Shown piece by piece: positions 42,809-63,425 of a stretch of 64,000 nt of DNA. Location: positions 4,922 through 68,921 of the forward strand of contig CAYZTZ010000005.1 of NCBI GenBank assembly GCA_964481255.1, read 5' to 3'. The first letter of the stretch is position 1. Every line of letters starts with the position of its first letter. The notes under the pieces are model-generated. The model searched no databases. It saw only the letters and a program-made list of their open reading frames with translations, and was not told the DNA's origin. Both the position numbers and the translations under genes were made by a program. Source of the DNA: an uncultured Acidobacteriota bacterium (GTDB taxonomy: Bacteria > Acidobacteriota > UBA6911).

Positions 42809-43360
42809 CGTTGTTTCCTCCTTCATTCTTTCTGACACCGGAATTCCCCTCGGGCATGAAATCCGCCAAGGCCCGCGGACCCAACGGCTTCGTACCCCTC
42901 CACATGATCCTGCCTCTCCATATCACAGTCCTGGCCAAACCCTTGAACCGCCGGACCGAATAGATTCTGAAGCCGCCGGTGCACCGGTAGAGATCTTCTG
43001 TCACCGGAACCTACTTTTCCGGATCTAAAAGGCTGATATCTCAGGCCGGACAACCGCCGCTTCCATCGATTGCGGCGCTGGTCGATTACATTTGGGGCCG
43101 GGTAGCGGCCAATTTGCATTACAGTCAGAGATCCCTGGAAAAAGAGACGCCTCCGAAATGCGTAAAACCCGCGTCGCTGCGGTAAACAAGGACGCTTCTC
43201 GCTGCTTGTCGCATTTTGCCGCAATCGAATCAAAAGTCAGGTATCGGCGAAAACCATAAGGCTATGCGAATGGCATGTCCATACTGCGTTGTTGTCGAAA
43301 TGCGCCGGGATAAAGTCCCGTGAATGGCCGACAGCATATTGCCATCCCGCCATAGCGGCT

Positions 43361-44587: not shown

Positions 44588-44614
44588 GCGAATCCCTTCC
44601 TTTCACCAAAACAT

Positions 44615-45868: not shown

Positions 45869-45872
45869 CCGC

Positions 45873-47057: not shown

Positions 47058-47106
47058 CCGTCACCTCTTTGGCTCGGTCGGACCGTTCCGGCCTTATGCC
47101 GCCGGG

Positions 47107-48465
47107 CTACCCCTCGCCAATTCCAATACCAAAGTGTTTTCTCAGTTCGGTGAGATAGTCCGGATCCATGGACCCTGCCTGTTGTTTTTCCAACAAATCA
47201 AGCCGCGTGGGCCTTCCGGGTGGAAAATCCGGAGTTCTGGAAATGACCTTATCCTTCTCCAGACGCACGAGCTCCTGCTTCGACATGCCCAACAATGAAC
47301 AAAAAACGTATTCGTTGTCCTCTCCGAAATGAGGAGCTCGCGTCAGGGCCAATTCCCTAAATCCTCGGAACTTTGCCGGCATCTGGCTGGGGATGGGCCT
47401 TGGACCGATGGCTTCTCCATGATCGATACACTGAAAGAAGCCTCGCTTCTTGAGGTGAGGATTCAGGTTGATTTCTTTCATGTTGAGCACGGCTCCGGCC
47501 GGGATCCTCAACCTCTGCAGGGTGTTCATTATTTCGAATTTGTCCCGGCGCATGGTCCATTGTTCCATCAGACAATCCAATTCAGGCTGTCGCGCAAGCC
47601 TGCCCTCCCTCGATGCGAACGCCCGGTCCCTTAACGCCTCAGGTTCATGGATCTCCCGGACAAAGCGCTTCCACTGGCCGTCGGTCTCTATAGCAATCGC
47701 CACCCACTCGTCGTCTCCCTTACAGCGATAACAGCCGTGAGGGGCGCATCCCGGATGCCGATTGCCCATGCGCCGGCGCTCGCGCTTATTCAGGATGCAA
47801 TCGAGAACTATGTCGCCCAGGTGGCAAAGAGTGGCTTCTCTTCCGGAAACATCCACGTACTGTCCCTTGCCGGTTATCTTCTGGTGGAATAGTGCGGTGA
47901 CCAGCGCCATGGCGGCATTGGCGCCTGTGACCCAGTCCCCGTAAGCGAAACCGGATAGAAGAGGCGGCTCATCCGGGTTGCCGGTGTTGTGCGTCAAACC
48001 GCTCATCCCCTCCATGCCCGGCACGTACATGTAGTAGTCCTTAAGCGGGCCGTCGTGTCCCAAGCCGCTCACCGAAACCATGATGATTCGAGGATTGATC
48101 TTCTTCAGGCGTTCGTAATTCAATCCCCAATGGGTCATTACCCTGGGCGAATAATTCTCGATGACCGCGTTGCTTATTCTTAAAAGCTGCCGGAAGATAT
48201 CGCGTCCCTTTTCGGTAGCCATATTGAGAGAGATGGCCCGTTTCCCTGCATTGAGGGAGTGAAACAGGCAGCCGCGATTCCAGGGATCGGCCCCCGGGTT
48301 GTTTTCGGGATAGACATTGGCTCGCGTAAATACATCCGGGCGTTGCCATGATTCTATCTTGAGAACCTCCGCTCCCAGTTCCGCCAATATCTTTGTGGCA
48401 ACGGGCCCGGCAAAAACCATGGTCAGATCGATAATTCTTATGCCGTCTAATATCTTGTATGCCAT
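47107..48465 (-). CDS. Family III CoA-transferase
   Basis: IRIIDLTMVFAGPVATKILAELGAEVLKIE, catalytic-position GDWVTG, C-terminal PHFGEDN. Confidence 0.85.
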   Translation of the reverse strand: MAYKILDGIRIIDLTMVFAGPVATKILAELGAEVLKIESWQRPDVFTRANVYPENNPGADPWNRGCLFHSLNAGKRAISLNMATEKGRDIFRQLLRISNAVIENYSPRVMTHWGLNYERLKKINPRIIMVSVSGLGHDGPLKDYYMYVPGMEGMSGLTHNTGNPDEPPLLSGFAYGDWVTGANAAMALVTALFHQKITGKGQYVDVSGREATLCHLGDIVLDCILNKRERRRMGNRHPGCAPHGCYRCKGDDEWVAIAIETDGQWKRFVREIHEPEALRDRAFASREGRLARQPELDCLMEQWTMRRDKFEIMNTLQRLRIPAGAVLNMKEINLNPHLKKRGFFQCIDHGEAIGPRPIPSQMPAKFRGFRELALTRAPHFGEDNEYVFCSLLGMSKQELVRLEKDKVISRTPDFPPGRPTRLDLLEKQQAGSMDPDYLTELRKHFGIGIGEG

Positions 48466-48480
48466 TATCGTTCCGATCGT

Positions 48481-49686
48481 TTATAGGATACCGGCACTCC
48501 GCAATCTCTCGATATCTTTTTGGGTGTACCCCAATCCTCGATAGATCTCACGGTTGTGTTCTCCCAGCAAAGGGGCTCGTCCGGAAAGCCATGGCGTCCT
48601 GCATAGTCTGGCAGGCGGGCCCGGGCTGGTGAATTCACCTAAACGTGGATGACGGATCGTGTCGAAGAACTTCCTGGCTCTCAATTGCGGGTCCTCTAAG
48701 AGTTCATGGACGCTCAAAACGGGAGTAAAAGCGAGCCGCAATTGCTGGGCTTCCGCCGTAATGTCCCATTTGTTGCGACTTATCAGCCACGGAATGACCA
48801 GGGCATCAAATCCTTCAGGATCGGCCATGCGGGTTCTTGGGTCGGTAAAAAACTCGCTGTCCTGTAATTCAGGTTTGTTGATCAGAAAAGGAATATTCGG
48901 CGCCCCTCCGATCCCGGGGGTGAGGCTGATCCAGCCATCCTTGCAGGGAACGCTGTAGCCGACGGGGTAACCGTGGATGGCAAACGGATTGGTCCGTCTG
49001 CTGAATCCCAGGTATGAATATTCCGTAATATGTCCCATGAGGGTGCTGGCGACACACTCCATCATTCCCACATCGATCGAAACGATATCCGGATTATTCG
49101 CTCGGCCCAGAAGCGCCGCCACCGTTGCTATATAGCTCAGCAGCCCCGTCGAGAATTCCGCCTGCACCCCCCCCAGCACGGAAGGTCTTGTTTTGGGTTT
49201 AGTCCCGGGTCTCATCGGATAGATCGCCCCGCCGAGGGCCGATACGGTGAGATTATTCGCGCGATAGCGGCGGTACGGCCCGGTTTTGCCAAAGGCTGAA
49301 ATTGAAGTCACAAGGATGCGGGGATTGATCTTCCGCAGTTTCTTCCTGGATAAACCCAATCTTCGGAGCCCTCCGGGGGCATAGCTTTCCACAAGGATAT
49401 CCGCGGTTTTCAGAATCCGCTTTGCTATTTCAATCCCCCTTTTGCTGTTGAGGTTTAAGGTAATGCTCTTCTTATTGGTGTTCAGATAGTGGAAAGTACC
49501 GCTCTTCTCGAGGTCATACTGATCATTGGGGAATGGTCCTATTTTCCGGGTGATATCCCCTTTGTTCGGTCTTTCAACTTTAATGACTTCGGCGCCGAAA
49601 GAACCGAACAGTTTTGTGCAATAGGGGCCTGCAATCCCCTGAGTCAGGTCCAGTATTCGCACCCCGCTGAATACCCGTTCGCCCAT
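48481..49686 (-). CDS. Family III CoA-transferase paralog (Glu at the catalytic Asp position)
   Basis: VRILDLTQGIAGPYCTKLFGSFGAEVIKVERP, catalytic-position QAEFSTG, C-terminal PLLGEHN. ATG 49686 (MGERVF) is preferred over the 23-aa longer track ORF. Confidence 0.8.
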   Translation of the reverse strand: MGERVFSGVRILDLTQGIAGPYCTKLFGSFGAEVIKVERPNKGDITRKIGPFPNDQYDLEKSGTFHYLNTNKKSITLNLNSKRGIEIAKRILKTADILVESYAPGGLRRLGLSRKKLRKINPRILVTSISAFGKTGPYRRYRANNLTVSALGGAIYPMRPGTKPKTRPSVLGGVQAEFSTGLLSYIATVAALLGRANNPDIVSIDVGMMECVASTLMGHITEYSYLGFSRRTNPFAIHGYPVGYSVPCKDGWISLTPGIGGAPNIPFLINKPELQDSEFFTDPRTRMADPEGFDALVIPWLISRNKWDITAEAQQLRLAFTPVLSVHELLEDPQLRARKFFDTIRHPRLGEFTSPGPPARLCRTPWLSGRAPLLGEHNREIYRGLGYTQKDIERLRSAGIL

Positions 49687-50345
49687 AAAATCACGCCCTT
49701 CTGCCAACGTGCGATGGATGCGTATCCCAAGACGCACACGTCCATGAGGACTCAAAACAAGTTTCCTGCACTTTGCTTGATCTCATGTTGCACACCGTTG
49801 ATATTTGACGATATTATTCCGCCGACAGAATCTGTTTCCAGTTTGCCGGCAATTGGATCCGTTGGCTGACCGGGAGCCCCTGCTGCGATTTCGGCCGGAG
49901 TCGCCGAGAGCGCAATCCAATACGCCCTTCCGCTCCTATTCCCTCCTTGAGCGGGGCAAAACAATATTATCATTGCAGGCAAAGCGTCGGACGCTCCAAT
50001 TCCACAACGGAAGGAGCTTATTGACGGATCGCTAACAGGCAACAGAAATTGCTTTATCTCCACAAAAATGATGCACCTAAACGCAGTTGCACATGAATTT
50101 ATTTGTAACATGGCGAAGCTTGTTTTAAAATGAAAAAAGAAGAACTGACCATCAGGCAAAGCAGGTCTTAGTTCTGGGAACCATTATGTTTATTGCTGCC
50201 AGGTTTCCCTCAAATGGTTGGGCTGTCTTGCCGTCCCCAATAGAAGGATTCGAAATGACAGCCGCGGATGAAGGTCAAAGCAAAACGCCGGAGGAGCGAG
50301 GCTTAAGGAATACTTGGGTTCCATAGAGCGTGGAGGGCGGAACAG

Positions 50346-51398
50346 ATGGCGGAATTTTCCAAGGATGAAGCCAAGGCCTGGGCAAAAAAGAACTTGAAAG
50401 GACTGGAAGCAGTAATTTTCCCGTCCTTTACACCGGATTTGAAAGAACTCGACGAAGAGGGTATTCGATATGATGTCAATCACCTCATTGCCAACGGTTT
50501 TACGTCCGTATTGGCAGCGCCGGAAGTTTGCGGAATGACCTTTGAAGAGCGAAAAAGGCTTGTCGAAATAGTATGCGACGAAGCAAAGGGTAAAATGCAC
50601 ACGTCGGTCGCTGTGATGCAGGATACCGTCGAGGAAGATATCGAGATGCTGCAGCATCTCGAAAAAGTCGGAGGAACTTTCGCCCTGCTCGGCCATCCGG
50701 TACAGTACCATCCCTGGTCGGTCGAGGATATTTTCCGGATGTATAAACACATGTGCGATTCGACAAATATCGCGATAGTGTTTTACGCCGGTCGACTCCA
50801 CACCAGGAAATTTCATCCGAGCTATTTTCCTCCGCAGCTCCTGCCACGTATAGCTGATATCCCTAACGTCGTGGCTATGAAAGTCGGCGGAGGGAGTTCG
50901 ATGGCCATTACGGTGATGTCTTTTCGTCTGTGCGGCGATAAAATCCTGGTCAACGACCCGACGCCTGAGAGGTGGTTTGTTACCGTGCCCCAATACGGTC
51001 AGCAATGGGCAGGCGCCGGCCCTTATTACGGAATGCAAACTCCCGAAAGACCGCGTATGGTCCATATGTTTAATCTGCTGGTGAAGGGTGAAATAGATAA
51101 AGCAATGGATATTTACTGGGAGGCGGCTCCTCCGGCAGAAGGCGGAGAAGGGCCGGCCGACTCCTATTTTCATACGGGCATTGTTACCGCTCTGAGCGAT
51201 AAATATTCACACTGGTGCAACGGGGGCAACGGCGGTACCGTCAGGCAACCTACAGGCCGGCTCCACGACTACCAGAAAGAGAGAATAAGGGCGGGGCTGA
51301 GAGCGCTGGGATTCACTCCTCGCGAACCCGAAGAAGAATTTTACGTCGGCAGGGTTAACTACGCCAAGGGAGCCAGATTGAAAAAATACAGTTCATAG
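50346..51398 (+). CDS. Divergent DHDPS/NAL-family (class I aldolase-like) protein, paralog 1
   Basis: TIM-barrel-sized (350 aa). Lys context IPNVVAMKV matches the DapA Schiff-base lysine strand. The GTTGE loop is replaced by PEVCGMT. RBS GGAGGG upstream. Confidence 0.7.
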   Translation: MAEFSKDEAKAWAKKNLKGLEAVIFPSFTPDLKELDEEGIRYDVNHLIANGFTSVLAAPEVCGMTFEERKRLVEIVCDEAKGKMHTSVAVMQDTVEEDIEMLQHLEKVGGTFALLGHPVQYHPWSVEDIFRMYKHMCDSTNIAIVFYAGRLHTRKFHPSYFPPQLLPRIADIPNVVAMKVGGGSSMAITVMSFRLCGDKILVNDPTPERWFVTVPQYGQQWAGAGPYYGMQTPERPRMVHMFNLLVKGEIDKAMDIYWEAAPPAEGGEGPADSYFHTGIVTALSDKYSHWCNGGNGGTVRQPTGRLHDYQKERIRAGLRALGFTPREPEEEFYVGRVNYAKGARLKKYSS

Positions 51399-51481
51399 CG
51401 GCAGATTGAATGAACGTATACCATATATATATATGCGGGACACCCGCCTCTATCCCGCACTATAAAGGAAGGGAGTTAACA

Positions 51482-52510
51482 ATGGAATTTACGAAATCAG
51501 AGGCCAAACAGTGGGCGAAAGAAAATTATAAGGGACTCGAGGGAGTATTAAGCCCTTCCTTTACGCCGGACCTGAGTCGACTGGACGAAGAAGGAATCCG
51601 ATATGATGTCCGGCATAACATAGACAAGGGGATGTTCAGCTTCCTTTGCCAGACAGAAGTTTGCGCAATGACTATGGAGGAGCGCAAGAGGTTCGTAGAA
51701 ATAGCCTGTGACGAAGCCAAAGGCAAGGTCCTGGTCTCCATGTTCACCGGCATCGATACTATGGAGCAGGATATCGAATTGTTACAGCATTTCGAGAAGG
51801 TCGGGGGAACTCATACCTTGCTTGGCTGGCCGGGAATGTTTTACGCTACGTCGGAAGAAGATATTTACCAGGCAACCAAAAAAGTATGCGATGCGACTAA
51901 TGTCGCCGTAGACCTCTGGCCAAAACCCAAGTTCGATTTCGGCAGATTTCATCCCAGCCATTTTAATCCCGAGCTGGTAGAAAGAATAACCGAAATACCC
52001 AACGTGGTTTCCATAAAAGCCTATATAAGCGACGGACTTGGAAAGTGGGCCGATATTCAACACCGTGTCGGCGATAAAGTTCTGCTACAGTCGGCTGAAG
52101 TAGAAGAGTGGCCTATTACAGTTGCAAAATATAAGCAGCAGTGGGCCGGACCGATAGATTACGTTATTTTCGATGAAACCGCCGATAATCCGCGCATCGT
52201 CAGAATGTTCAACCTGTTCAGGGAAGGCGAATTTTCAAAGGCGATGGAGCTTTACTGGGAACTGGCCCCGATAACGATTGGAGCCCGGGCTGCAATGCTT
52301 CAATCAGGTATGATGGGCGTGAAATACATGCAGTGGTTAACTGGGGGCAACGGCGGAATGTACAGACAGCCGACAATGCCGATATTTCAGCGCCAGAAAG
52401 ACGCAATGAGAGCGGGTCTGAAAGCCGCCGGTATCACCCCGCGGGAGCCCGAGGAAGAGTTCTATGTAGGAAGACTAAATTACGCCAAAGGCGCGAGGCT
52501 AAAGTATTAG
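51482..52510 (+). CDS. Divergent DHDPS/NAL-family protein, paralog 2
   Basis: About half the residues are identical by eye to paralog 1 (SEAKQWAKENYKGLEGV, LDEEGIRYDV, IPNVVSIK, TPREPEEEFYVGRLNYAKGARLK). ATG 51482 has a GGAAGGGAG RBS. Confidence 0.7.
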   Translation: MEFTKSEAKQWAKENYKGLEGVLSPSFTPDLSRLDEEGIRYDVRHNIDKGMFSFLCQTEVCAMTMEERKRFVEIACDEAKGKVLVSMFTGIDTMEQDIELLQHFEKVGGTHTLLGWPGMFYATSEEDIYQATKKVCDATNVAVDLWPKPKFDFGRFHPSHFNPELVERITEIPNVVSIKAYISDGLGKWADIQHRVGDKVLLQSAEVEEWPITVAKYKQQWAGPIDYVIFDETADNPRIVRMFNLFREGEFSKAMELYWELAPITIGARAAMLQSGMMGVKYMQWLTGGNGGMYRQPTMPIFQRQKDAMRAGLKAAGITPREPEEEFYVGRLNYAKGARLKY

Positions 52511-52627: not shown

Positions 52628-55129
52628 ATGGCGCTTAATTCCGGCGGCAAGTATGCCAAAGAAGTTGGGTCATGGCAGGAGATTTTTAAACCTGTCCGTT
52701 CCGCGCGGGTGGAAAAGGCCAGGGAAAGAGTGCGCAAAGAAGCCGAAATCTGCCTGGAACGCATTCGAGCCGAACTCAAAGCCTGTAACCAGTATAAAGA
52801 CCAGCCCTCCATCATTCGGCGAGCCCGCTTTCTTGAGACTTTCCTGAGGGAGAAAAGCATACTTATCCAGGAGGATGAACTCATTGTAGGCACCGTAGGA
52901 AGTAAGCCTCGCTCCGCTTTTATAACAACGGCGAATATCGCCTCCATCGAACAAGAGCTGGACGATCCCGTCAAGGACTTCTCCACTCGGCCATATGACA
53001 GGATTTTAGTTCATCCTGAGGAGAGAAAAGAATTAAGGGAAGAAATCATTCCGGCGGTTAAAGGCGGGGCCATCTCTCTTTTCGAACATAATTTGAAAAC
53101 TGTCGACCGGGATATTCTCGAACATACCGCTCCCGGAGTCTCATCCTGTCCGCATATACCCATTATCGGCGACGTATCGATGGCAAGAGAGGCCGGCCAC
53201 ATGTTCCTCAACTTTGAAAAGGCCCTTTATAAAGGGCTTCGAGGAATCAAGGATGAGGTCAGGGAGAAGATGGCGGAACTCGACCAGCCCTATCGCGGAT
53301 TTGACCGAAAACAGAGACGAGAGTTTTACGAATCCGTGCTCATCACCCTTGATGCGGCTACGGAATATTTCCAGAAATATGCCGGACGGGCGCGTGAGAT
53401 GGCGGCAAAAGAAGCCGCGCCGAATCGAAAGACGGAACTGGAACGTATCGCCGAGGTATGCGACCGGGTACCGGAAAATCCCGCTCGGGATTGGTGGGAA
53501 GCTCTACAGTCCATTTGGTTCCTGTTCACTCTGAGCTGGATGGAACACGCCACTTTTGCAGTACATTTTCTCGGCCGAATCGACCAGATTCTGTATCCCT
53601 TCTACAAGAAAACCGTGGAAGATGAGAAGAAAATGACCCGGGAAGAAGCCCTGGAGCTTCTGGAGTGTTTCCTGGTGAAATTCAACGAACCGGCCTGGGC
53701 GCTCAACTACGAGTGGTCGCAATGGGCAACCGGCCAGGGACTTTCCCAGACAATGGTCATCGGCGGACAGACCAGAGAGGGCAAAGATGCCTGCAACGAG
53801 GTGACCATGCTCGTGCTGGAAGCCATGGAGCAATTGCGTCTGAATCAGCCGGAATTCGCCATGAGGATATGGGAAGGGACCCCCGATAGATATCTTAAAA
53901 AGGCAACCCAGCTTATCCGCCTCGGGCTCGGCTATCCGAAATTCATCGGCGACCGGAAAGGAATTCAGATGGCAGCCAGGGGCTATCCGGACCTGGCCAT
54001 CGAGGACTGGCGCCAGTTCGCTGTTGCCGGATGTTCGGAGATAGGCCTGCCTTATATCACTATGGATAACGGCTATGAAGCCATCGCGCTGGCCTCCAAG
54101 TGGATAGAGCTGGTCTTGAGCAACGGCAAGTGCGCGGTATGCGGCAAGCAGATCGGACTTGAAACTGGCGATCCCAGGAAATTTAAAACCATGGAACAGG
54201 TGAAAGACGCCTACCGCAAACAGGTATTCTACTGGGGCGAGTATATGGCAAAAGCCGAGAGGATTTTCAAGGAAGCCCAGAGCGAATGGTATCCTGCTCC
54301 ATTCTGCTCGGCCCTTGCCGAGGGACCACTCGACAGGGGGCGAGATATTACCCGGGGCGGCGCCTGGTACACCGTGTACGGTCTTTTGCTGGCCAGCCTC
54401 GCTGACGCGGCGGATTCTCTGGGAGTAATAGACAAGCTTATCTACTGTGATAAAAAGATCACCTGGGATCAGTTGATTGAAGCGGTGAACGCCAACTGGG
54501 AAGGTTATGAAAACTTAAGACAGCTATGCGTCAACGGTGTCCCGAAATACGGGAATGACGACGATTACGCCGACGGTTGGGCCATCTGGGTAGCCGATGT
54601 CTGGGCCGACCTGATAGACTGGCTCAATACCCGAAAAGACCTTATGCCGAAGTGGGGAGGCAGATATCTGGCAGGAGGCCTGGTAGCAATAGCCAGTACC
54701 CAGTTCGGAGAATCGGTCGGCGCCACACCCAACGGGCGTAAACATCCCCAGCCGGTGGCCGATACCTGCTCTCCTGTACAGGGTGTCGACCGGAACGGTC
54801 CCAGCGCCGTCGTCAAGTCATTCAGTAAATTGCCTACTCACCGATGGGCGCTCTGCAGTCTTATAAACCTCCGGTTAAATCCGAATCTGTTTACATCCGA
54901 TGCTGACCTTGAGAGGTTTGCAGCTTTTATTCGAGCATGTGAAGAGTTAGGTTTGTACCATTTTCAGTTCAATATAATTTCTGCGGAACTGCTGCGTCAT
55001 GCAATGAAAGAACCCGAAAAACACCGGGATCTGCTGGTCCGGGTGGCCAGCTATGTCGCTTATTTTGTTGAGTTGAGTCCGAACCAGCAGATGGACATCA
55101 TCCATAGAACCGAGCACCAGGGCTGGTAA
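52628..55129 (+). CDS. Glycyl-radical-enzyme homolog (PFL2-like clade) whose radical-site Gly codon reads Ser
   Basis: 833 aa. Thiyl loop FAVAGCSEIG (Cys codon 54032-54034; the C-x-E arrangement is kept), YGNDDDYAD block, C-terminal RVASYVAYF where GREs have RVxG(Y/F). AGC at 55049-55051. Confidence 0.85.
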   Translation: MALNSGGKYAKEVGSWQEIFKPVRSARVEKARERVRKEAEICLERIRAELKACNQYKDQPSIIRRARFLETFLREKSILIQEDELIVGTVGSKPRSAFITTANIASIEQELDDPVKDFSTRPYDRILVHPEERKELREEIIPAVKGGAISLFEHNLKTVDRDILEHTAPGVSSCPHIPIIGDVSMAREAGHMFLNFEKALYKGLRGIKDEVREKMAELDQPYRGFDRKQRREFYESVLITLDAATEYFQKYAGRAREMAAKEAAPNRKTELERIAEVCDRVPENPARDWWEALQSIWFLFTLSWMEHATFAVHFLGRIDQILYPFYKKTVEDEKKMTREEALELLECFLVKFNEPAWALNYEWSQWATGQGLSQTMVIGGQTREGKDACNEVTMLVLEAMEQLRLNQPEFAMRIWEGTPDRYLKKATQLIRLGLGYPKFIGDRKGIQMAARGYPDLAIEDWRQFAVAGCSEIGLPYITMDNGYEAIALASKWIELVLSNGKCAVCGKQIGLETGDPRKFKTMEQVKDAYRKQVFYWGEYMAKAERIFKEAQSEWYPAPFCSALAEGPLDRGRDITRGGAWYTVYGLLLASLADAADSLGVIDKLIYCDKKITWDQLIEAVNANWEGYENLRQLCVNGVPKYGNDDDYADGWAIWVADVWADLIDWLNTRKDLMPKWGGRYLAGGLVAIASTQFGESVGATPNGRKHPQPVADTCSPVQGVDRNGPSAVVKSFSKLPTHRWALCSLINLRLNPNLFTSDADLERFAAFIRACEELGLYHFQFNIISAELLRHAMKEPEKHRDLLVRVASYVAYFVELSPNQQMDIIHRTEHQGW

Positions 55130-55162
55130 CAGACCGAAAGCGTACCGGGTAGAGGCATCGGC

Positions 55163-56092
55163 TTGACGAATCCATCGGCTTCCTCTGCAAAGAAACGATC
55201 TGTCCTTAGCATTGCCCGGATGACAGTTCATAACGGACCCGGAATACGAACCTTGATACTTCTGAAAGGCTGTCCCTTACGCTGCATCTGGTGTTCCACG
55301 CCTGAATCCTGGGAGGAGTCCCCGGAAATCGCCTTCCACCCGGATAAGTGTATCCTATGTAACGACTGTCTTCCGGTTTGTCCGAAGAATGCGATAACAA
55401 CCGGCGATAAAGCGGTGGTCCTAGACAGGGAGTTATGCGATAAATGCGGAAGGTGTGCCGATGTATGCCATACGGAAGCCCTGAGACTCCTGGGACGGCA
55501 ATATACAGCAGACGAATTGGTCTACGAGGTGAAGAAGGACGAAATTATCTATAAACATTCCGGAGGCGGCGTAACCGTTTCGGGAGGAGAGCCCCTGCTT
55601 GAACCGGAGTTTGCCGCGGAATTGCTCCGCGCTCTTAAACAGAACGGAATGAATACCGGAGCGGATACCTGCGGTTTTGTCCCCCGGAAAAATATCGAGG
55701 CCGTCCTCCCCTATGTCGACTTTTTTCTCTGGGATATCAAGCACATGGATGAGGATACCCACCGCAAACTAACCGGAGTATCCAACCGTCTCATCCTGGA
55801 CAACCTGCTTTTTGTCTCGGGTAATAATATACCCGTCTATCTGAGAATACCGGTGATACCCGGCTGCAATGATTCGGAGGAAAACCTGAGGGCCGTCTGT
55901 GATTTCGCCGCAGACCTGCCCTCGCTGGTTGAGATAAACATCCTGCCGTTGCACCACCTGGGCAAGGCAAGATATGTCGCTCTGGGCCTCGAATACCCCA
56001 TAGACGATATTCCTCTAGTTAAGGATGGTGTTCTCACGGAGATGCAACGCCTGGTGGAATCATTCGGCTTAAAGTGCAGCATAATCGGCTAA
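55163..56092 (+). CDS. Glycyl-radical enzyme activating protein
   Basis: HNGPGIRTLILLKGCPLRCIWCSTPES (Cx3Cx2C), CILCNDCLPVCP, CDKCGRCADVCH, GGVTVSGGEPL. TTG start at 55163 is uncertain. Confidence 0.9.
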   Translation: MTNPSASSAKKRSVLSIARMTVHNGPGIRTLILLKGCPLRCIWCSTPESWEESPEIAFHPDKCILCNDCLPVCPKNAITTGDKAVVLDRELCDKCGRCADVCHTEALRLLGRQYTADELVYEVKKDEIIYKHSGGGVTVSGGEPLLEPEFAAELLRALKQNGMNTGADTCGFVPRKNIEAVLPYVDFFLWDIKHMDEDTHRKLTGVSNRLILDNLLFVSGNNIPVYLRIPVIPGCNDSEENLRAVCDFAADLPSLVEINILPLHHLGKARYVALGLEYPIDDIPLVKDGVLTEMQRLVESFGLKCSIIG

Positions 56093-56104: not shown

Positions 56105-56341
56105 GTGCTGAATCCCAATATCGACGAATTGTTTTCCGGCTCGATAGACATTCAACTTCATTCCGGTCCGGACCGGACGCCGGAGCGCGTGGATGCCGTT
56201 GAAGCCGCTGAACAGTCTGCCGATTTCGGAATGAAAGCCATCGTGCTGAAAAACCACAGTCATCCCACCGCTCCGGCGGCTATCATCGCCCGGGAGATGG
56301 TGCCTGAAGTTGAGATGTTCGATTTTTGCAACTGTTCATAG
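56105..56341 (+). pseudogene. N-terminal ~70-aa fragment of a metal-dependent (amidohydrolase/PHP-like) hydrolase
   Basis: IDIQLHSGPDRTPERVDAVEAAEQSADFGMKAIVLKNHSHPTA resembles the first beta-strands/HxH region of amidohydrolase-fold proteins of ~290 aa. Ends at 78 aa, 30 nt before the next gene. Confidence 0.4.
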
Positions 56342-56370: not shown

Positions 56371-58209
56371 ATGCGACGTTTTAAAACGGCGTTAATCTGT
56401 TTATGTGCTCTGGTGATCGCGTTGGCCGCAAGCGTGGTGATCCAGGGAAATATAAAGAACACCATGACAAGCGAAAAAGTAACAGTGCTGAACCCTAGAG
56501 GCATACCTCCTCCAATAGAAATGATACCCATGGCCCCCCGGCTCGATACCCTGGAGGGCAAAACAATATACGTCGCAGGTATAAATTTCCAACCGTTGCA
56601 TCAAGGCATGATAGAAATCCACAGAATACTCACCGAAAAATATCCCAAAACCACATTTATACTCAAGGTCAAAAAAGGCTCTTACTTAGTTAATGACCAG
56701 GAGCTGTGGGATGAAATCAAAGAAAAAGGCGACGCAGCGATAGTCGGCATCGGGCAACTGGATACCAATGCGCCGGCGACCGTCATCTTCTCCTCCATAC
56801 TGGAAAAAATGGGGATACCCACGGCGCCTGTTGTCACCGCGGGGTTTCCGAATCTCACGAGAAGCTTCGCCTACAAGAAGGGAATGCCTGAACTGCGATT
56901 GACTTTTATTCCCCATCCTTTCACGGCCAGGCCAGTCGAAGTACAACGGGAATATATAAGGGGTAAAGATCCGATAAGCGGCAAACCAATCATTGAACAA
57001 ATCGTTGAGGCCCTTACCAAACCGCTGACTGATAAAGAACGAAAGACAGGTACCATAGAAAGACCGATACAAAGAGTGCTGGGACCTGATACTCCCGAGA
57101 AACTGGCCAAGCTCTTTCTTGAAAAAGGATGGACCGATGGTCTTCCGATAATTCTTCCTACGGAAGAAAGAGTCGCCGAAATGCTCAAGGGAACAGGCCA
57201 CAAGCCGGATGAGGTCATCGGCACGATGCAGCCCACTCCTCCTAACGAGGCATGGGAAGGCTCTCTAAGGCAACTTGGCAGTAGTCAGGCGAAAGGAGGA
57301 CCTGAATTACCGGTAACTATGCAGCCCTCCCCTCCCTATGAGTCCTGGGAATATACTGTAAAGCACGTCGCTATCAATGCCGTGATGGCGGGAGCCGGTA
57401 AAGAGCATTTCCCTGTAATACTTGCTATAGCATCCACAGGAGTAACCTCATTATTCAGTTCCTGTTCCTCTTTCGCCAGAATGGTTGTCGCCAACGGGCC
57501 AATTCGCAAAGAGATAAACATGAATTCCGGACTGGCCGCGTTGGGCCCCTTCAATCATGCCAATTCCGTCATCGGCAGGGCGTGGACGTTGATATCCAAG
57601 AATCTGGGAGGCTCGATACCGGGCGAAACATATCTGGGGGATCTGGGCAATGCCCTCAACTACAACAATTTGTGTTTTGCGGAGAATGAAGAGTCTCTGC
57701 CTAAAGGATGGAATCCTCTGCATGTGCAAAAGGGCTATAAAGCAAAAGAAAGCGTAGTTAGCATATTCAGCGGATGGAGCTTGATTAATTATGGTGCTTT
57801 TAAGCCGTACCCGATTCACGAGGTCATCAGGAAATTGTTGATAAGCTTTGAAACCAGCGGCCCCGGCAGTTGCAGGCCGACTCTGTTATTAAGCCCGGTA
57901 ACGGCCGAAGATCTTAGGAATGAAGGCTTCGAAAGCAAGGAGAAGTTGAGCCATTGGCTCAAGGAAAACACCTATATGAGCCTCTGGAACTATTGGGCAA
58001 CGAGGCCTGAGGACCTGGCGTCTGCAAAAGCAGGGCGCGAGCCATTCGCGTCTATGCTGAAGCAGCCTCCCGGGGCGGACTCACCACAAAAGGCTATGAT
58101 GCCCTTCACCCAGGCTGAGATTCTGGTTGTGGGTGGGGGAACCGAGGTCTCCTGGCAGGCCGGAGATTTCGGGTACGTGGTATCAGCATCAGTGGATAAG
58201 TGGAGGTAG
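56371..58209 (+). CDS. Exported ~610-aa protein of unrecognised family, paralog P1
   Basis: RBS AAAGGAGGG plus ATG 56371. Signal/anchor MRRFKTALICLCALVIALAAS. Blocks shared with P2: VLNP, PRL..L..K.I, GW.DGLP...PT, A(I/V)NAVMAGA, FPVI.A, NGPI/SGPI, AEN(E/D)E. Confidence 0.6.
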   Translation: MRRFKTALICLCALVIALAASVVIQGNIKNTMTSEKVTVLNPRGIPPPIEMIPMAPRLDTLEGKTIYVAGINFQPLHQGMIEIHRILTEKYPKTTFILKVKKGSYLVNDQELWDEIKEKGDAAIVGIGQLDTNAPATVIFSSILEKMGIPTAPVVTAGFPNLTRSFAYKKGMPELRLTFIPHPFTARPVEVQREYIRGKDPISGKPIIEQIVEALTKPLTDKERKTGTIERPIQRVLGPDTPEKLAKLFLEKGWTDGLPIILPTEERVAEMLKGTGHKPDEVIGTMQPTPPNEAWEGSLRQLGSSQAKGGPELPVTMQPSPPYESWEYTVKHVAINAVMAGAGKEHFPVILAIASTGVTSLFSSCSSFARMVVANGPIRKEINMNSGLAALGPFNHANSVIGRAWTLISKNLGGSIPGETYLGDLGNALNYNNLCFAENEESLPKGWNPLHVQKGYKAKESVVSIFSGWSLINYGAFKPYPIHEVIRKLLISFETSGPGSCRPTLLLSPVTAEDLRNEGFESKEKLSHWLKENTYMSLWNYWATRPEDLASAKAGREPFASMLKQPPGADSPQKAMMPFTQAEILVVGGGTEVSWQAGDFGYVVSASVDKWR

Positions 58210-58431: not shown

Positions 58432-59670
58432 ATGTCTGAAGAAAAGAAAATAACGGCAATAACCAACGGCTTATTAATCGATGGTACGGGCGCCGACCCT
58501 GTTAAGAACGCGACAGTCCTTATCGAGGGATCGATAATCAAGAAAGTGGGAAAGCGTCAAGATATTCCCAGGGGTGCGACAGTCCTGGATGTTTCCGGGA
58601 AGACGGTGATGCCGGGGCTGATAAACGCGCATATGCACCTGGCGGGAGGCAGTTCCGGGATCGGACCGTCTCCGTACCGCCCCAGAGAAGTCGCAATGTT
58701 CAAAGCGGCGGATGATGCCAAGAATATGCTGGCCTCGGGATACACGACCGTGAAGGACTGCGCCGGGAGAAACGCCCCTTTCCTGAAGCAGGCCGTCAAA
58801 GAGGGCGTCCTGACAGGGCTTCCTCGCATCGTGGCTGCCTGTTGTGTATTGAGCCAGACAGGTGGTCCGCAGGATCAAGCATCCAAAGCTGGGAAATCTC
58901 GGGATGCACGGGAGAATGATGAAGCAGAGTTTCTCATTTGTGATGGCGTGGACGAGTGTATTAAGGCGGCTCGCTACTCTCTGCGGTTGGGTGCGGACTT
59001 CATTAAGGTCTTTGCCAGCATGAGTTTCTGGAATGCGGATCACGATTCTCCAAGCGGTGTCACATTCAGTATGGATGAGATGGAGGCTTTTGTGAAGACA
59101 GCCGCCCAGGTTGGCAAATTCGTTACGGTTCATTCTCAGAATCGCCATAGTTCGAAGATTGCCATACTTGCCGGGGTAAAGACCATAGACCACGCCAGCG
59201 GCTCGGATGACGAAGTCGTGTCGTTGGGGAAGGCGCACGGTGCGATTTTCGTATCGACTCTCGCATATCTCAGGGTGATGCTTGATGGAAAACTGGCCTC
59301 TCAAGCCTCCGCAATGATACAAAAGGAGTGGGATGCTTCCGTTGAGGCATACAGGAAAATGCACGATGCAGGAGCTGTCCTGGCCGCCGGCACGGATAGC
59401 TTCGGAGATGCAAGAGAAGGTGCGATGGAAATTGAATTGTTGAAGAAATATTGCGGTTTCACCCCGATGGAAGCCATTGTAGCAGCGACCAAACACGGCG
59501 CCGAAGCTTGTTTTATGGGTGATAAAACGGGGACGATAGAAGCAGGTAAGTACGCCGATATTATCGTTGTCGATGGCAACCCGCTGGCGGACATAAAGAT
59601 ACTGCAGGATGTCAATAAGATTAAAATAGTGATGTTGGAAGGCGACATCTGTGTCCATCGAGGGCTTTAG
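58432..59670 (+). CDS. Amidohydrolase-superfamily metal-dependent hydrolase
   Basis: ITNGLLIDGTG...VLIEGSIIKKVG...VMPGLINAHMHL (HxH), HSQN, DHAS and GTDS blocks. RBS AAAGGAGAAG. Confidence 0.8.
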   Translation: MSEEKKITAITNGLLIDGTGADPVKNATVLIEGSIIKKVGKRQDIPRGATVLDVSGKTVMPGLINAHMHLAGGSSGIGPSPYRPREVAMFKAADDAKNMLASGYTTVKDCAGRNAPFLKQAVKEGVLTGLPRIVAACCVLSQTGGPQDQASKAGKSRDARENDEAEFLICDGVDECIKAARYSLRLGADFIKVFASMSFWNADHDSPSGVTFSMDEMEAFVKTAAQVGKFVTVHSQNRHSSKIAILAGVKTIDHASGSDDEVVSLGKAHGAIFVSTLAYLRVMLDGKLASQASAMIQKEWDASVEAYRKMHDAGAVLAAGTDSFGDAREGAMEIELLKKYCGFTPMEAIVAATKHGAEACFMGDKTGTIEAGKYADIIVVDGNPLADIKILQDVNKIKIVMLEGDICVHRGL

Positions 59671-59887: not shown

Positions 59888-60967
59888 ATGAAAAATCTAA
59901 GGTTAAACAATATGCAAAAACTGCTGATATTCATCAGCTATATCCTAATTGTTTGCGGGAGCGCCGCTATCGCCGATGATCGTCCGGACTCGGGGGGCAT
60001 TAAATATCTTCACGGTCCCCGGAATGCCGAGGATATCCAACCGCTTGGTGATTCTCAATGGTTGGTTACCTCCGGCTTGAACGGTCAGGCTTCAAAAACC
60101 GATGATAACGGCCATATCTACCTGGTCCATCGCAAAGAGAAGACATTCGAAGAATTATTTCCGGGGGCAACGCCAAAATTTGATCATGATAAGGCATTGT
60201 TCAATGCCTGCCCAGGCCCGATAAACCCTAACAAGTTTTCCGCCCATGGACTGGCCGTGCAGCAACGGTCCTCAGGGCTGTATCGCCTGTACGTCGTCAA
60301 TCATGGAGAAAGGGAAGCCATAGAAGTATTTAATATCGACGCTCAAGGAACAAAGCCGGCGATCACTTGGGCGGGTTGTGTATTATTACCCAGAGAAGTC
60401 ATGGCGAACGGTGTCGCGATCCTGCCAGATGGCGGCTTTTTGACAACCAATTATTTCGATCCGACTGTGCCGAATTCCATAAGAGATCTCATCCAGGGCA
60501 AGATCAGCGGTGCCGTTTATGAATGGCATCCCGGCGGAAATGTAAAAGGCATACACGGTACCGAGCTATCAGGTCCAAACGGGATCGCGTTATCGCCGGA
60601 TAATGAATGGGTCTATGTGACGGCCTTTGGCACACGCGAGATAGCCCGGTTTAACCTTACAAAAAGCCCCATTACAATGGAGAGAGTTAAAATCGACATC
60701 ATGCCTGATAACATCCGTTGGGGTGATGATGGCATGCTTTACGTCGCGGGCAATAACTATGTGCCGCCGGAGCAATGCCCAAAACCACCATGTCGGACCG
60801 GATGGTCCGTTTATAGTGTCCATCCCCGAACCCTGGAATTGAAACGAGTCACCGGTGTTGATCAAACGGCAGCTCTGCAGAATGGCACGACGGCACTTGT
60901 CGTGGGCCATGAGATATGGGTCGGAACCTACTCGGGTGATAGGATTTGTTATTTGCCGAAGCCTTAA
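59888..60967 (+). CDS. Exported SMP-30/gluconolactonase/arylesterase-like beta-propeller protein
   Basis: Signal peptide (MQKLLIFISYILIVCGSAAIA). NGIALSPDNEWVYVTAFGTREIARFNL and PDNIRWGDDGMLYVAG are typical six-blade propeller repeats. Confidence 0.7.
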   Translation: MKNLRLNNMQKLLIFISYILIVCGSAAIADDRPDSGGIKYLHGPRNAEDIQPLGDSQWLVTSGLNGQASKTDDNGHIYLVHRKEKTFEELFPGATPKFDHDKALFNACPGPINPNKFSAHGLAVQQRSSGLYRLYVVNHGEREAIEVFNIDAQGTKPAITWAGCVLLPREVMANGVAILPDGGFLTTNYFDPTVPNSIRDLIQGKISGAVYEWHPGGNVKGIHGTELSGPNGIALSPDNEWVYVTAFGTREIARFNLTKSPITMERVKIDIMPDNIRWGDDGMLYVAGNNYVPPEQCPKPPCRTGWSVYSVHPRTLELKRVTGVDQTAALQNGTTALVVGHEIWVGTYSGDRICYLPKP

Positions 60968-61017
60968 ACTTCCTGAATCATGCGGATTAAAGGCAGTTCA
61001 CTATAATGGGAGGCCTT

Positions 61018-61356
61018 ATGAGCCTTAACACATCGAGGAGGACATTTCTAAAGGCTGCGGGTGCGGGAGTATTGCTGCCTGCCGCCGGACGTGCTTCAAC
61101 AACAGGCCCTAAAGCCGCATTTCAACCGCATACAGATGTTGTCAAGAACACTTTAGGCAAAACAGGCCCGAAGGTTTGCGGAATAGCCTGCGGAATCGGG
61201 TTCGTGCCTCTGACGGAAGAGGTTTCCCGCGCATTGGATATGGGGATTAATTATTTCGATACGTCACCGGATTGCGGTGACTGCGAAAAGATCCTTTCAG
61301 ACATTACAAGAAGCCGGAACCGGATGTGCGCCCCGTATTACATGATATATTCTTGA
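61018..61356 (+). pseudogene. Truncated Tat-signal aldo/keto reductase (N-terminal ~100 aa only)
   Basis: SRRTFLKAAGAG twin-arginine signal, then LGKTGPKVCGIACGIG...ALDMGINYFDTSPDCGDCEKIL (AKR N-terminal block LGKTG..VS..G.G / GIN.FDTA..YG). Stops after ~112 aa and is followed by 250 nt of non-coding DNA. Confidence 0.5.
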
Positions 61357-61604: not shown

Positions 61605-63425
61605 ATGGGAAAGTTTAATGCAGTTGGGTTAAGATCATTAATAGGTTTTTTTGTCTGCCCTATAATCCTGGTGCATGCAAATACTTTTACTGCCGAGCCT
61701 GCACGGAAGGCAGAAGGTGTTTCGTTTGAAGTGCTTAATCCTGAGACCGAGATGATTATGCCATCTGAAATCTCACTGATTTCTCCGCGGCTTAAGGACC
61801 TGTCGCAGAAGAAGATCGGATTGCTCTACGCCGGCAAATCGGGTGGAGAGTTTTTTCTGGATGCGTTAGAGGTGCTTCTGAAGAAGAAATATCCTTCGAT
61901 CACCATCACCAGATATACCCGGTGGGTGGATAATGCAGAGGAGAGGATAGTGAAGGAAGAAGATGCCTTTGTTTATGCGGTGGGAGATGCCGGCCAGGCG
62001 GCCTGGGACAGCATAACCTGGACGGTAAAACTGGAAAAGCGCGGTAAACCCGGTGTCGCTGTTTTTGGCGACCGCGTGTTATATAACGCAAAAGTGGCCG
62101 CTACCCGTCTCGGCATGCCGTCGGTACGTATGGTGCCGCTGCCCAGCATGGAATTCTACCCGAACAGGGCAAGCGCAAAGAGCATGATACCTTGTGCCGA
62201 AATGGTTCTGGACGATATCATAAATGCGTTGACCCGCCCGATACAGCCTTCAGAGAAAAATGCCGTTTTGATACCGAAAAAGATGATGCCGGATTTTGTC
62301 AGAATTACAGGCGACAGCCTGGAATCCGCCTATGAGAAATTCTACCAGCTATTCATGGATTATGGCTGGGGCGACGGACTACCATTGGTCCCTCCCACAC
62401 GCCATAATGTCGAACAGATGCTAAAGGCAACCAGCCTTCCGCCTGATACGATCCTGGGTACAATACAAGTGCATGACGGGAGTTGCGACCTGGTGAATGT
62501 CACTGTGAAGAAGGTTGCTGTCAATGCTGTGATGGCCGGCGCCAAACCGGAATATTTCCCGGTTATTATCGCCGCCATGAAAGGGATATCCGATAAGGGA
62601 TTTTCCAGTCACGTGTTTTCTTCAGACGCCTCCTTTAACCTTTTGATAGCCGTGTCCGGTCCCATTGCGAAAAAAATCGGTATGCACTCCGGAACAGGTC
62701 TGTTGGGGCACGGATGGCGGGCCAACAATACCATTGGACGCGCTGTGAGGCTGTGCATGAACAATATCGGCAATTTGAAACCGGCAAAGCTGGATACGGC
62801 ATTAACCGGCAGGGCGTCATCCCATACTTTTTATGTGCTGGCTGAAAATGATGAATTAAGTCCCTGGGCTCCTTACCACACGGTTCATGGTTACCGGGCG
62901 GAAGACAGTTGTGTTACGGTGTCCGGTATAGGTTTGGGCGGCGATTTCACGGATTACGGCGGCGGAACCGGAGCCGCCTGGACAGTTGAGAGCGTTCTGG
63001 AAAGAATCGTTAAAAGAATAGCTTCCAACCGCAATATGTTTGCGGGAGCCGGTGTCAGGCCTCTCAACTATATTTTCGTATTGAGTCCCGATACGGCACA
63101 GGAACTGAAAAAACGGGGCTTTTCCAGGCAGAGCCTCCAGGATTACATTATCGACAAAACATCCGTACCCTATGAGGAGCTGAGCAAAGCTGAGATAGAA
63201 GGGCTTAAAAAGAAACTTTCGGAAAGGTCCGAAGCCTGGGGAGGAACCGGTAATATTCCTGAAGACCGCATCCCTGTGTTCTGGGAAAACCTTAAACCCG
63301 GAGGCAAAATACCTATTATCGTTTCACCGGACAACCTTAACATTTTTGTGTCGGGTGATGTGTCAGGCTATAATTTTGGAGCGGTTTATCTGCTCGGGGG
63401 CCACTCGATTAAACCCGTTCAATAA
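61605..63425 (+). CDS. Exported ~606-aa protein of unrecognised family, paralog P2
   Basis: RBS GAAGGAGGAAG plus ATG. Signal peptide MGKFNAVGLRSLIGFFVCPIILVHA. Collinear with P1 (GWGDGLPLVPPT, AVNAVMAGAKPEYFPVIIAA, SGPIAKKIGMHSG, LAENDE). Confidence 0.6.
   Translation: MGKFNAVGLRSLIGFFVCPIILVHANTFTAEPARKAEGVSFEVLNPETEMIMPSEISLISPRLKDLSQKKIGLLYAGKSGGEFFLDALEVLLKKKYPSITITRYTRWVDNAEERIVKEEDAFVYAVGDAGQAAWDSITWTVKLEKRGKPGVAVFGDRVLYNAKVAATRLGMPSVRMVPLPSMEFYPNRASAKSMIPCAEMVLDDIINALTRPIQPSEKNAVLIPKKMMPDFVRITGDSLESAYEKFYQLFMDYGWGDGLPLVPPTRHNVEQMLKATSLPPDTILGTIQVHDGSCDLVNVTVKKVAVNAVMAGAKPEYFPVIIAAMKGISDKGFSSHVFSSDASFNLLIAVSGPIAKKIGMHSGTGLLGHGWRANNTIGRAVRLCMNNIGNLKPAKLDTALTGRASSHTFYVLAENDELSPWAPYHTVHGYRAEDSCVTVSGIGLGGDFTDYGGGTGAAWTVESVLERIVKRIASNRNMFAGAGVRPLNYIFVLSPDTAQELKKRGFSRQSLQDYIIDKTSVPYEELSKAEIEGLKKKLSERSEAWGGTGNIPEDRIPVFWENLKPGGKIPIIVSPDNLNIFVSGDVSGYNFGAVYLLGGHSIKPVQ

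Follow-up and report, generated by a model that had tools for sequence, protein, structure and literature searches.

Paralogous UGSC-domain proteins without the family's selenocysteine motif beside a glycyl radical enzyme gene in an uncultured Acidobacteriota bacterium

Introduction

Surveys of the Olavius symbiont and of Global Ocean Sampling data list proteins with a UGSC domain among abundant selenoproteins whose function is not known (PMC1976440, PMC2398784). A 'UGSC/Unknown_1 fusion' is noted in the Global Ocean Sampling paper (its Fig. S1A), where a thioredoxin-like fold was also suggested for the UGSC domain (PMC2398784). With this N-terminal domain catalogued and a UGSC fusion noted in 2008, the two proteins described here, P1 and P2, are a motif-less variant. 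Their genes lie on the forward strand of a 64,000-nucleotide stretch (the window, whose positions are used throughout) of contig CAYZTZ010000005.1 (assembly GCA_964481255.1) from an uncultured Acidobacteriota bacterium. Our literature searches found nothing on the function or structure of either domain.

P1 and P2 resemble the ocean fusion in layout, joining a UGSC domain to an unnamed conserved domain (the C-domain) that also exists alone. Selenocysteine is present in the ocean fusions and absent from P1 and P2. In both proteins, the N-terminal ~180 residues match the Pfam model of the UGSC family (PF24696) well over threshold, but P1 and P2 lack the defining U/C-G-S-C motif, having LDTN and AGQA instead, and they are ~600-residue fusions, whereas UGSC proteins have ~150–180 residues. 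On balance, we think it somewhat probable that P1 and P2 are a functional, motif-less pair of this two-domain family, which acts here as a non-redox heteromer at the outer face of the membrane.

P1 and P2 are paralogs with a UGSC-family N-domain

56371 to 58209, + strand: P1 gene; 612 aa, with a probable N-terminal anchor, a UGSC-like domain and an unnamed C-domain (open reading frame (ORF) and ribosome-binding site, Pfam, AlphaFold2)
61605 to 63425, + strand: P2 gene; 606 aa, with a predicted signal peptide, a UGSC-like domain and a C-domain (ORF and ribosome-binding site, Pfam)
56476 to 57018, + strand: P1 N-domain, residues ~36–216; UGSC-family flavodoxin/Rossmann-like alpha/beta domain
57043 to 58206, + strand: P1 C-domain, residues 225–612; blocks GWTDGLPxxPPT, AINAVMAGA, NGPI, ANxxIGRA and AENEE
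62286 to 63422, + strand: P2 C-domain; collinear with the P1 C-domain and keeping every family-invariant residue
57223 to 57365, + strand: in-frame, 93-nt duplication in the P1 C-domain; direct repeat, MQPTPPNEAWEG... / MQPSPPYESWEY

P1 runs from an ATG at 56371 to a stop codon ending at 58209, and P2 from an ATG at 61605 to a stop codon ending at 63425. The sequences 5′ of the two ATGs (aaaGGAGGgaaatcATG for P1 and gaAGGAGGaagaaATG for P2) both carry a GGAGG ribosome-binding site 7–9 nt upstream, in agreement with the strong sites claimed by the first-pass annotation of the window, which had used the letters and their translations without database searches. Neither gene contains an internal stop or a lipobox, and both ORFs read through. 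BLASTP aligned P1 and P2 collinearly with 30% identity over 540 residues (E 8e-51), a match far above chance. This alignment recovered all four C-terminal blocks that had been picked out by eye, GW(T/G)DGLP..PT, A(I/V)NAVMAGA..(H/Y)FPVI, (N/S)GPI..(E/K)I.M.SG and AEN(E/D)E. An AlphaFold2 model of P1 built from an 80-sequence alignment (pLDDT 86.4, pTM 0.86) comprises a helix (residues 2–26), an alternating beta/alpha domain (37–215) and a separate alpha+beta C-domain (225–612). BLASTP, Pfam and the model thus bear out the earlier description of two paralogs with a collinear two-part architecture and an alternating beta/alpha pattern in the N-terminal part. The database holds at least 5969 relatives of P1.

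The first-pass annotation could not assign the proteins to a family; this no longer holds for the N-domain and still holds for the C-domain, for which no family match was found. The Pfam model PF24696 (UGSC) matched P1 at 64.1 bits (residues 39–192, E 2e-17) and P2 at 55.6 bits (residues 55–210, E 9e-15), against a cut-off of 25. The NCBIfam model NF041046, 'UGSC family (seleno)protein', scored 46.2 bits for P1 and 46.0 bits for P2, under its equivalog cut-off of 125. Consistent with these matches, a stand-alone UGSC selenoprotein from a related locus (L093) aligned by BLASTP with P1 at 31% identity (E 7e-19) and with P2 at 32% identity (E 1e-18). The N-terminal ~180 residues of P1 and P2 therefore belong to the UGSC (seleno)protein domain. 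We rejected the thioredoxin-like fold suggested for this domain, as the P1 model and its Foldseek matches are flavodoxin/Rossmann-like instead. The best PDB match of the full P1 model (E 1.5e-3, TM-score 0.16) was among generic alpha/beta matches to the N-domain. These also included weak matches to periplasmic sugar-binding proteins (E ~1e-2, TM-score 0.11–0.13) that left the C-domain uncovered.

The C-domain retains eight family-invariant residues in both P1 and P2 (D256, T264, S364, S367, N398, R403, E438 and W447), and the invariant residue types are Asp, Thr, Ser, Asn, Arg, Glu and Trp. No His or Cys is conserved across the family's C-domains, so that no metal site is apparent. For this domain, searches with the full proteins, with 10 representatives and with 20 diverse C-domains found no Pfam match, in the last case even at E≤10; NCBIfam likewise gave no match, and neither single-sequence nor profile searches matched a PDB chain. 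A model of the C-domain by itself (pLDDT 83) had no Foldseek match in the PDB at E<1e-3, the best being E 0.05 with a TM-score of ~0.2. Toblerone-fold cyclic amide hydrolases, YjgF-like repeats and the alpha subunit of class I fumarate hydratase were the only recurring matches of this model. We rejected them as an identity for the C-domain and regard them as a lead only (E 0.05–9, probability ≤0.18, TM-score ~0.2, root-mean-square deviation >12 Å). Two further candidates were discarded. A periplasmic solute-binding protein is supported neither by a Pfam or NCBIfam match to such proteins nor by the fold, and homology to GrdB/PrdB or GrdE/PrdA found no match to PF07355 or PF09338 at E≤1 with the full proteins or at E≤10 with the C-domains.

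Relatives of the C-domain number 3467 cluster representatives at 50% identity (E≤1e-3) and occur as ~560–600-aa fusions, ~350-aa stand-alone proteins and ~720-aa tandem duplicates. The duplication in the P1 C-domain consists of copies at 57223–57272 and 57316–57365 with 72% identity and a spacing of 93 nt. It encodes a loop that was modelled with low confidence (pLDDT 40–47 at residues ~300–320); the loop is common to the P1 clade and missing from P2 and from two more distant homologs (P0083 and P0096).

The family's selenocysteine motif is missing from P1 and P2

56758 to 56769, + strand: degenerate redox motif of P1; L130-D-T-N133, where canonical members have U-S-T-C or U-G-S-C
61989 to 62000, + strand: degenerate redox motif of P2; A129-G-Q-A132, aligned to U-G-S-C

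The canonical stand-alone UGSC selenoprotein of L093 reads GLGD-U-GSC-VSW and aligns with P1 at the position of LDTN. In its BLASTP alignment with P2, GLGD-CGSC-VSWSV stands opposite AVGD-AGQA-AWDSI. Many database homologs are ~450 aa long and start just past the position of P1 residue ~140, and the contigs that encode them carry a ~125-aa 'UGSC' ORF directly 5′ in the same frame. Translation in frame across this junction in the homologs of one locus (L007) gives GVGH-TGA-STC-APAV. Among 80 related loci from GTDB species representatives, pooled with earlier loci, all 42 upstream ORF fragments ended in TGA, after which STC, SSC, DGC, PGC or SYC came in frame. Public gene calls split such selenoprotein genes at the TGA into ORFs of ~125 and ~450 aa, as in L007 (804–2552, 2630–4396 and 5603–6241), L008, L014, L036 and others. 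Up to five family paralogs occur on a single contig of a metagenome-assembled genome (MAG; L014).

We surveyed the four aligned motif residues, which in canonical members open a helix of the N-domain, in 84 full-length family genes. UxxC was found in 42 of the 84, in 32 cases as USTC, and CxxC in 8, 7 of them CSTC. The remainder included 13 genes degenerate in the manner of P1 (LDTC, LDTN, MDTL or LDTL) and at least 16 degenerate in the manner of P2 (NGMG, SGAA, AGQA, SGIG and similar). P1 and P2 thus fall in a degenerate minority, 50/84 genes having U/CxxC, and each family copy in this census that is linked to a glycyl radical enzyme (GRE) or to DHDPS-like genes is degenerate at the motif. 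A cysteine-form member (GVGH-CSTC-APAV) is present in a cultured bacterium, Terripilifer ovatus H3SJ34-1 (L084).

Many of the selenocysteine homologs (for example in L007, L008, L033 and L079) contain a hairpin, CCGGC-GGUC-GCCGG, 12–30 nt after the UGA, which overlaps the APAVVG codons. With the E. coli fdhF element in mind, we take its GGUC loop to be a SECIS-like apical loop. The corresponding P1 sequence (GCGCCGGCGACCGTCATC) does not form this hairpin. Folding energy over the 52 nt downstream of the UGA had no overall significance (mean z −0.2), and only the local GGUC hairpin recurs. Neither P1 nor P2 has an in-frame TGA, and we found no tRNA-Sec, or any other tRNA, in the 64-kb window. 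Judged from their sequences, typical family members carry a selenocysteine (UxxC) or CxxC motif, which has been lost from both P1 and P2. The earlier remark that there was no TGA and no cofactor motif is therefore correct for P1 and P2 themselves, but such genes are atypical of the family. Because both motif residues are gone, P1 (LDTN) and P2 (AGQA) are predicted to be redox-dead.

Loss of both U/CxxC residues might mean that P1 and P2 are functionless pseudoenzymes in decay, and a truncated DUF6282 gene beside P1 and a possibly fragmentary 116-codon ORF between P1 and P2 would suggest local gene decay. We computed the ratio of nonsynonymous to synonymous substitution rates (dN/dS) against the syntenic orthologs of an Acidobacteriota MAG (L010), which are 89% (P1) and 87% (P2) identical. 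For the whole proteins dN/dS was 0.155 (P1) and 0.218 (P2), with values of 0.064 and 0.15 for the N-domains, 0.155 and 0.24 for the C-domains, and 0.47 and 0.29 for the leaders. P1 and P2 are thus under purifying selection despite the loss of the motif. These low values, most of all that of the P1 N-domain, together with full-length ORFs and the retention of all invariant C-domain residues, make decay very improbable, as does the conservation of redox-dead pairs of P1-type and P2-type genes across Chloroflexota, Acidobacteriota and Desulfobacterota.

Neighbours of canonical members suggest a probable ancestral redox activity

Two loci (L093 and L094) contain a stand-alone, split UGSC selenoprotein gene directly 5′ of a gene for a stand-alone C-domain, which matches that of P1 at E 3e-37. 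Such adjacent split genes suggest, by the Rosetta stone argument, that the UGSC domain and the C-domain work together whether fused or separate. Both loci also have a second C-domain paralog, divergently transcribed, beside a peptide-type ABC transporter. We found a thioredoxin-reductase-like flavoprotein (Pyr_redox_2, CxxC) in 15 loci, where it mostly adjoins leaderless USTC or CSTC forms, as beside the CSTC form of a Chelativorans locus (L072); no such gene is present in the window. Neighbouring SBP_bac_5 and TctC genes hint at peptides or opines and at tricarboxylates as candidate substrates. Exported selenocysteine forms, with Sec-type or NRRKLL Tat (twin-arginine) leaders, adjoin small exported DUF4352-like proteins, PQQ dehydrogenases and rhodanese. 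In L007 and L008, a stand-alone UGSC selenoprotein with a signal peptide adjoins rhodanese.

The U/CxxC motif, the fused or adjacent domains and the thioredoxin-reductase-like neighbour together suggest that canonical members are thiol- or selenol-dependent redox proteins, which would act on a substrate held by the C-domain. Glycine and D-proline reductases (selenoproteins GrdA, GrdB and PrdB) use a selenol–thiol pair and are reduced via thioredoxin and thioredoxin reductase. The analogy with these enzymes extends to canonical family members only, in the UxxC/CxxU pair and in the thioredoxin-reductase-like gene next to leaderless forms. The reductases are unrelated in sequence to the family, and P1 and P2 have no selenocysteine or cysteine pair.

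P1-type and P2-type genes recur as neighbours

50346 to 52510, + strand: two DHDPS-like genes (Pfam PF00701); the most constant neighbours of P1-type genes
52628 to 56092, + strand: GRE (833 aa) and activase (309 aa), directly 5′ of P1 (Pfam PFL-like, Gly_radical, Radical_SAM and Fer4)
58432 to 59670, + strand: predicted cytoplasmic amidohydrolase, between P1 and P2 (Pfam)
59888 to 60967, + strand: predicted exported SMP-30/gluconolactonase-like protein, between P1 and P2 (Pfam, signal peptide)
61006 to 61356, + strand: 116-codon ORF with a textbook Tat leader (SRRTFLKAAGAG), between P1 and P2

P1-type and P2-type genes lie adjacent to each other in a set of loci of which at least 10 are independent: the window and L002, L004, L005, L008, L010, L011, L012, L013, L024, L032 and L037. 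The set spans MAGs of Chloroflexota, Acidobacteriota and Desulfobacterota. The suggestion that two diverged copies form a heteromer is compatible with these recurring pairs, gene adjacency being the evidence for it. To compare neighbours within 10 kb, we counted non-redundant loci of the P1 (degenerate) type and of the redox type and applied Fisher's test, the loci not being phylogenetically independent. A GRE was present in 5/11 P1-type loci and 0/42 redox-type loci (p 1.6e-4), a DHDPS-like pair in 7/11 and 0/42 (p 2e-6), a URO-D-like gene in 4/11 and 2/42 (p 0.013), and DUF6282 in 3/11 and 0/42 (p 0.007). The link of the P1 type to GREs is real, although some P1-type loci lack a GRE, and its most constant partner is the DHDPS-like pair. 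The orthologs of P2 lie in GRE-free arrays.

The GRE of the window is of the eliminase type, and its closest solved relatives, CutC, IslA, HypD and others, are about equally distant. The amidohydrolase also follows the P1 ortholog in L005 and L010. Beyond its leader, the 116-codon ORF looks by eye like the start of an aldo/keto reductase, a resemblance without Pfam support, and may be a truncated gene. An ORF of 116 codons is likewise present at this position in L010, and a 505-aa Aldo_ket_red gene lies beside the pair of P2 orthologs in L090. The window contains no URO-D gene. A promoter and terminator scan of 50–64 kb gave counts equal to the shuffled expectation.

A rival reading is that P1 and P2 are not partners: P1 would belong to the GRE/DHDPS-like module, and P2 would be a stray from a separate array of paralogs that are exported, as would the Tat-leader ORF and the gene for the exported lactonase-like protein. 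Orthologs of P2 (57–87% identity) are found in GRE-free tandem arrays of 2–4 exported paralogs with a MarR gene, and in L090 also with the aldo/keto reductase. P2 lies 3.4 kb from P1 behind a 250-bp upstream region of its own, and the ORF just 5′ of P2 combines a Tat leader with an aldo/keto-reductase-like start. However, the syntenic L010 genome preserves the order P1...P2, P1-type genes at all other sites have a neighbour of the P2 type, and the window holds no further family member that could serve as another P2-type gene. We therefore consider two unconnected proteins unlikely, though a serious alternative to a P1–P2 partnership.

Leaders suggest a probable outer-face location of P1 and P2 in this lineage

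56371 to 56463, + strand: P1 leader, residues 1–31; MRRFK and then a hydrophobic helix of ~19 residues, which probably serves as an uncleaved signal anchor
61605 to 61679, + strand: predicted Sec-type signal peptide of P2, residues 1–25; likely cleavage between VHA and NT
56105 to 56341, + strand: remnant of a DUF6282 (amidohydrolase-like) gene, 78 codons, between the GRE activase and P1

Both proteins have hydrophobic N-termini, MRRFKTALICLCALVIALAASVVI in P1 and MGKFNAVGLRSLIGFFVCPIILVHA in P2, the latter followed by the cleavage before NT. Together with the helix at residues 2–26 of the P1 model, these N-termini agree with the signal or anchor sequences proposed for both proteins at first. 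The MRRFK and hydrophobic helix extension was found only in P0001–P0005 (87–100% identity to P1) and L010. Most P1 homologs begin MT..K(I/V)TVLNPRG without a leader, including Dehalococcoidales proteins at 82–85% identity and the homologs P0007 and P0009 at 85%. The internal Met of P1 (Met32) is missing from P0002–P0005 and L010, so the upstream start must be used; we rejected a start at Met32 because these closest orthologs lack it. The closest relatives keep the reading frame of the extension, in which they differ by conservative substitutions and an indel that preserves the frame. Set against the Tat consensus S/T-R-R-x-F-L-K, the RR pair of P1 is not conserved (P0003 and P0005 have RS), for which reason we rejected Tat export, and neither is the AxA site. 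Given the absent Met, an extension kept in frame and the unconserved RR and AxA, the P1 leader is probably a genuine, recently acquired signal anchor that stays uncleaved.

The anchor appears to lie at a deletion scar, as a truncated DUF6282 gene abuts its start. The remnant matches residues 1–72 of the DUF6282 product of L002 with 46% identity (E 5e-22), and an intact 292-aa DUF6282 gene stands at the same position in L002 and L003. In P2, the n/h/c organisation and the sequence ..LVHA/NTFAAEP (cleavage at the stroke) are conserved in all orthologs at ≥57% identity. P2 has no twin-arginine; one ortholog (P0314) has a Tat leader instead, its NCBI name being Tat-signal-containing, and clear NRRKLL Tat leaders occur in other family members. 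The P2-type partners of leaderless P1-type genes are likewise leaderless.

P1 could nevertheless be cytoplasmic, either by starting at Met32 (MTSEKVTVLNPRG) or because its helix anchors it on the cytoplasmic side of the membrane. The position of Met32 is precisely where most homologs begin, and the residues that flank the helix differ modestly in charge (~+3 N-terminal to it, +1 to +2 C-terminal to it). Placement in the cytoplasm would also suit the products of the adjacent GRE, DHDPS-like and amidohydrolase genes. These points are opposed by the strong GGAGG site before the ATG at 56371, the site before Met32 being weak, and by P0002–P0005 and L010, which lack that Met yet keep a hydrophobic leader in frame. 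We regard a cytoplasmic P1 as improbable in this organism. The first-pass annotation found exported partners unexpected for a cytoplasmic radical enzyme. The leaders uphold this puzzle in the present lineage and not in general: it appears specific to the lineage, because most GRE-linked P1 orthologs are leaderless and predicted cytoplasmic.

The explanation offered then was that P1 and P2 are exported proteins that may bind or pre-process a substrate and so feed a cytoplasmic GRE pathway from outside. Several observations are consistent with such a role. Both proteins have leaders. P1 directly follows the GRE and activase genes, and GREs are over-represented near genes of the P1 type. Between P1 and P2 lie a Tat-leader ORF and a gene for an exported lactonase-like protein, and the N-domain gave the weak Foldseek matches to periplasmic sugar-binding proteins. 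By contrast, the other GRE-linked P1-type genes with a callable start (L002, L013 and L037) are leaderless, as are P1 relatives at 85% identity. No Pfam model of solute-binding proteins and no structure matched significantly, no transporter is adjacent in the window, and P2 orthologs occur without a GRE. Substrate feeding therefore seems rather unlikely to us.

A proposed non-redox pair in a conserved catabolic module

We instead favour a non-redox heteromer of P1 and P2 at the outer face of the membrane. The pair of P1-type and P2-type proteins would be part of a conserved catabolic module that also comprises two DHDPS-like genes, with or without a URO-D-like gene, DUF6282, and a GRE with its activase. 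P1 and P2 would act together, their conserved C-domains binding or transforming a small, probably carboxylated, organic substrate without redox chemistry, and the N-domain may have been retained for a structural or docking role. The catabolic module is predicted to be cytoplasmic in most lineages. In the Acidobacteriota-like lineage, P1 would have gained its signal anchor beside the deletion that truncated DUF6282, and the sole P2-type gene present is predicted to be exported. The gain of an anchor by P1 and the presence of only an exported P2-type gene suggest that the pair acts on the outer face of the membrane in this organism.

Several points weigh against this reading. The proposed chemistry is drawn from motifs and neighbours, neither domain having a characterised homolog, and the C-domain, with no significant fold match, could be an enzyme or a binding module. 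A partly conserved Cys before AENEE is present in P1 and replaced by Val in P2, and could support some thiol chemistry in P1. The heteromer is deduced from gene adjacency, the loci of the enrichment analysis lack phylogenetic independence, and a stretch of 3.4 kb with three genes separates P1 from P2 in the window. Since its true orthologs lie in GRE-free arrays, P2 may have no part in the P1 pathway. Leaders were called with a simple heuristic and the positive-inside rule rather than a trained predictor (SignalP/TatP), and the charges flanking the P1 helix give a modest bias for the orientation of the anchor.

A bolder proposal, which we consider doubtful, is that proteins with a UGSC domain and a C-domain constitute a new class of selenocysteine- or cysteine-dependent enzymes, whose fold is without a solved relative and which many bacteria of soil and sediment would export by way of Sec or Tat. 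P1 and P2 would then be a redox-independent heteromeric offshoot that can be placed on either side of the membrane and has been recruited as an essential part of a new GRE catabolic pathway (DHDPS-like pair, URO-D-like and DUF6282).

The family has thousands of members in Acidobacteriota, Chloroflexota, Desulfobacterota, Proteobacteria and other phyla, many of them predicted to be exported. About half of the sampled genes are selenoproteins, often mis-called at the TGA, and the larger domain has neither a Pfam model nor a solved relative. The motif has been lost repeatedly, and P1 and P2 indicate that the scaffold outlives its total loss under strong purifying selection. The pairs without selenocysteine are tied to an uncharacterised GRE/DHDPS-like cluster that is common in MAGs from anoxic soil and sediment. 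If either function were solved, a large set of genes now called 'hypothetical' would gain an annotation, and a new route of anaerobic degradation might come to light. The family is experimentally tractable, since cysteine-form members occur in cultured bacteria such as Terripilifer ovatus.

Other features of the window and related loci

Literature searches on DUF6282, PF24696 or PF19799 and on GREs with URO-D and DHDPS found nothing, and those on GREs in Dehalococcoidia or Acidobacteriota found nothing relevant. The densest association of GREs with the family was seen in 'bacterium SM23_31' (L037, 743–16700), where two GRE/activase pairs flank three paralogs: a P2-type gene, a P1-type gene with MDTL and an AGSC form.

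40973 to 49755, − strand: divergent upstream block; an aldehyde:ferredoxin oxidoreductase, four family III CoA-transferases and a double-hotdog MaoC-like hydratase
37754 to 38689, − strand: 311-aa exported protein without a Pfam family

A homolog of the MaoC-like protein also lies beside the GRE/P1-type cluster in L002 and L030. The 311-aa protein clusters with proteins encoded near exported, selenocysteine-containing family members in L014 and L069. The G+C content of the window is 0.59–0.65 at 1–34 kb and 0.49–0.54 at 40–64 kb, and the low-G+C part contains the CoA-transferase, GRE and P1/P2 genes. The closest named leaderless relative of P1 is from a Dehalococcoidales MAG (82% identity), and the syntenic genome is from Acidobacteriota. 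This drop in G+C content, together with a Dehalococcoidales relative of P1 as against an Acidobacteriota syntenic genome, suggests that the low-G+C cluster was acquired horizontally.

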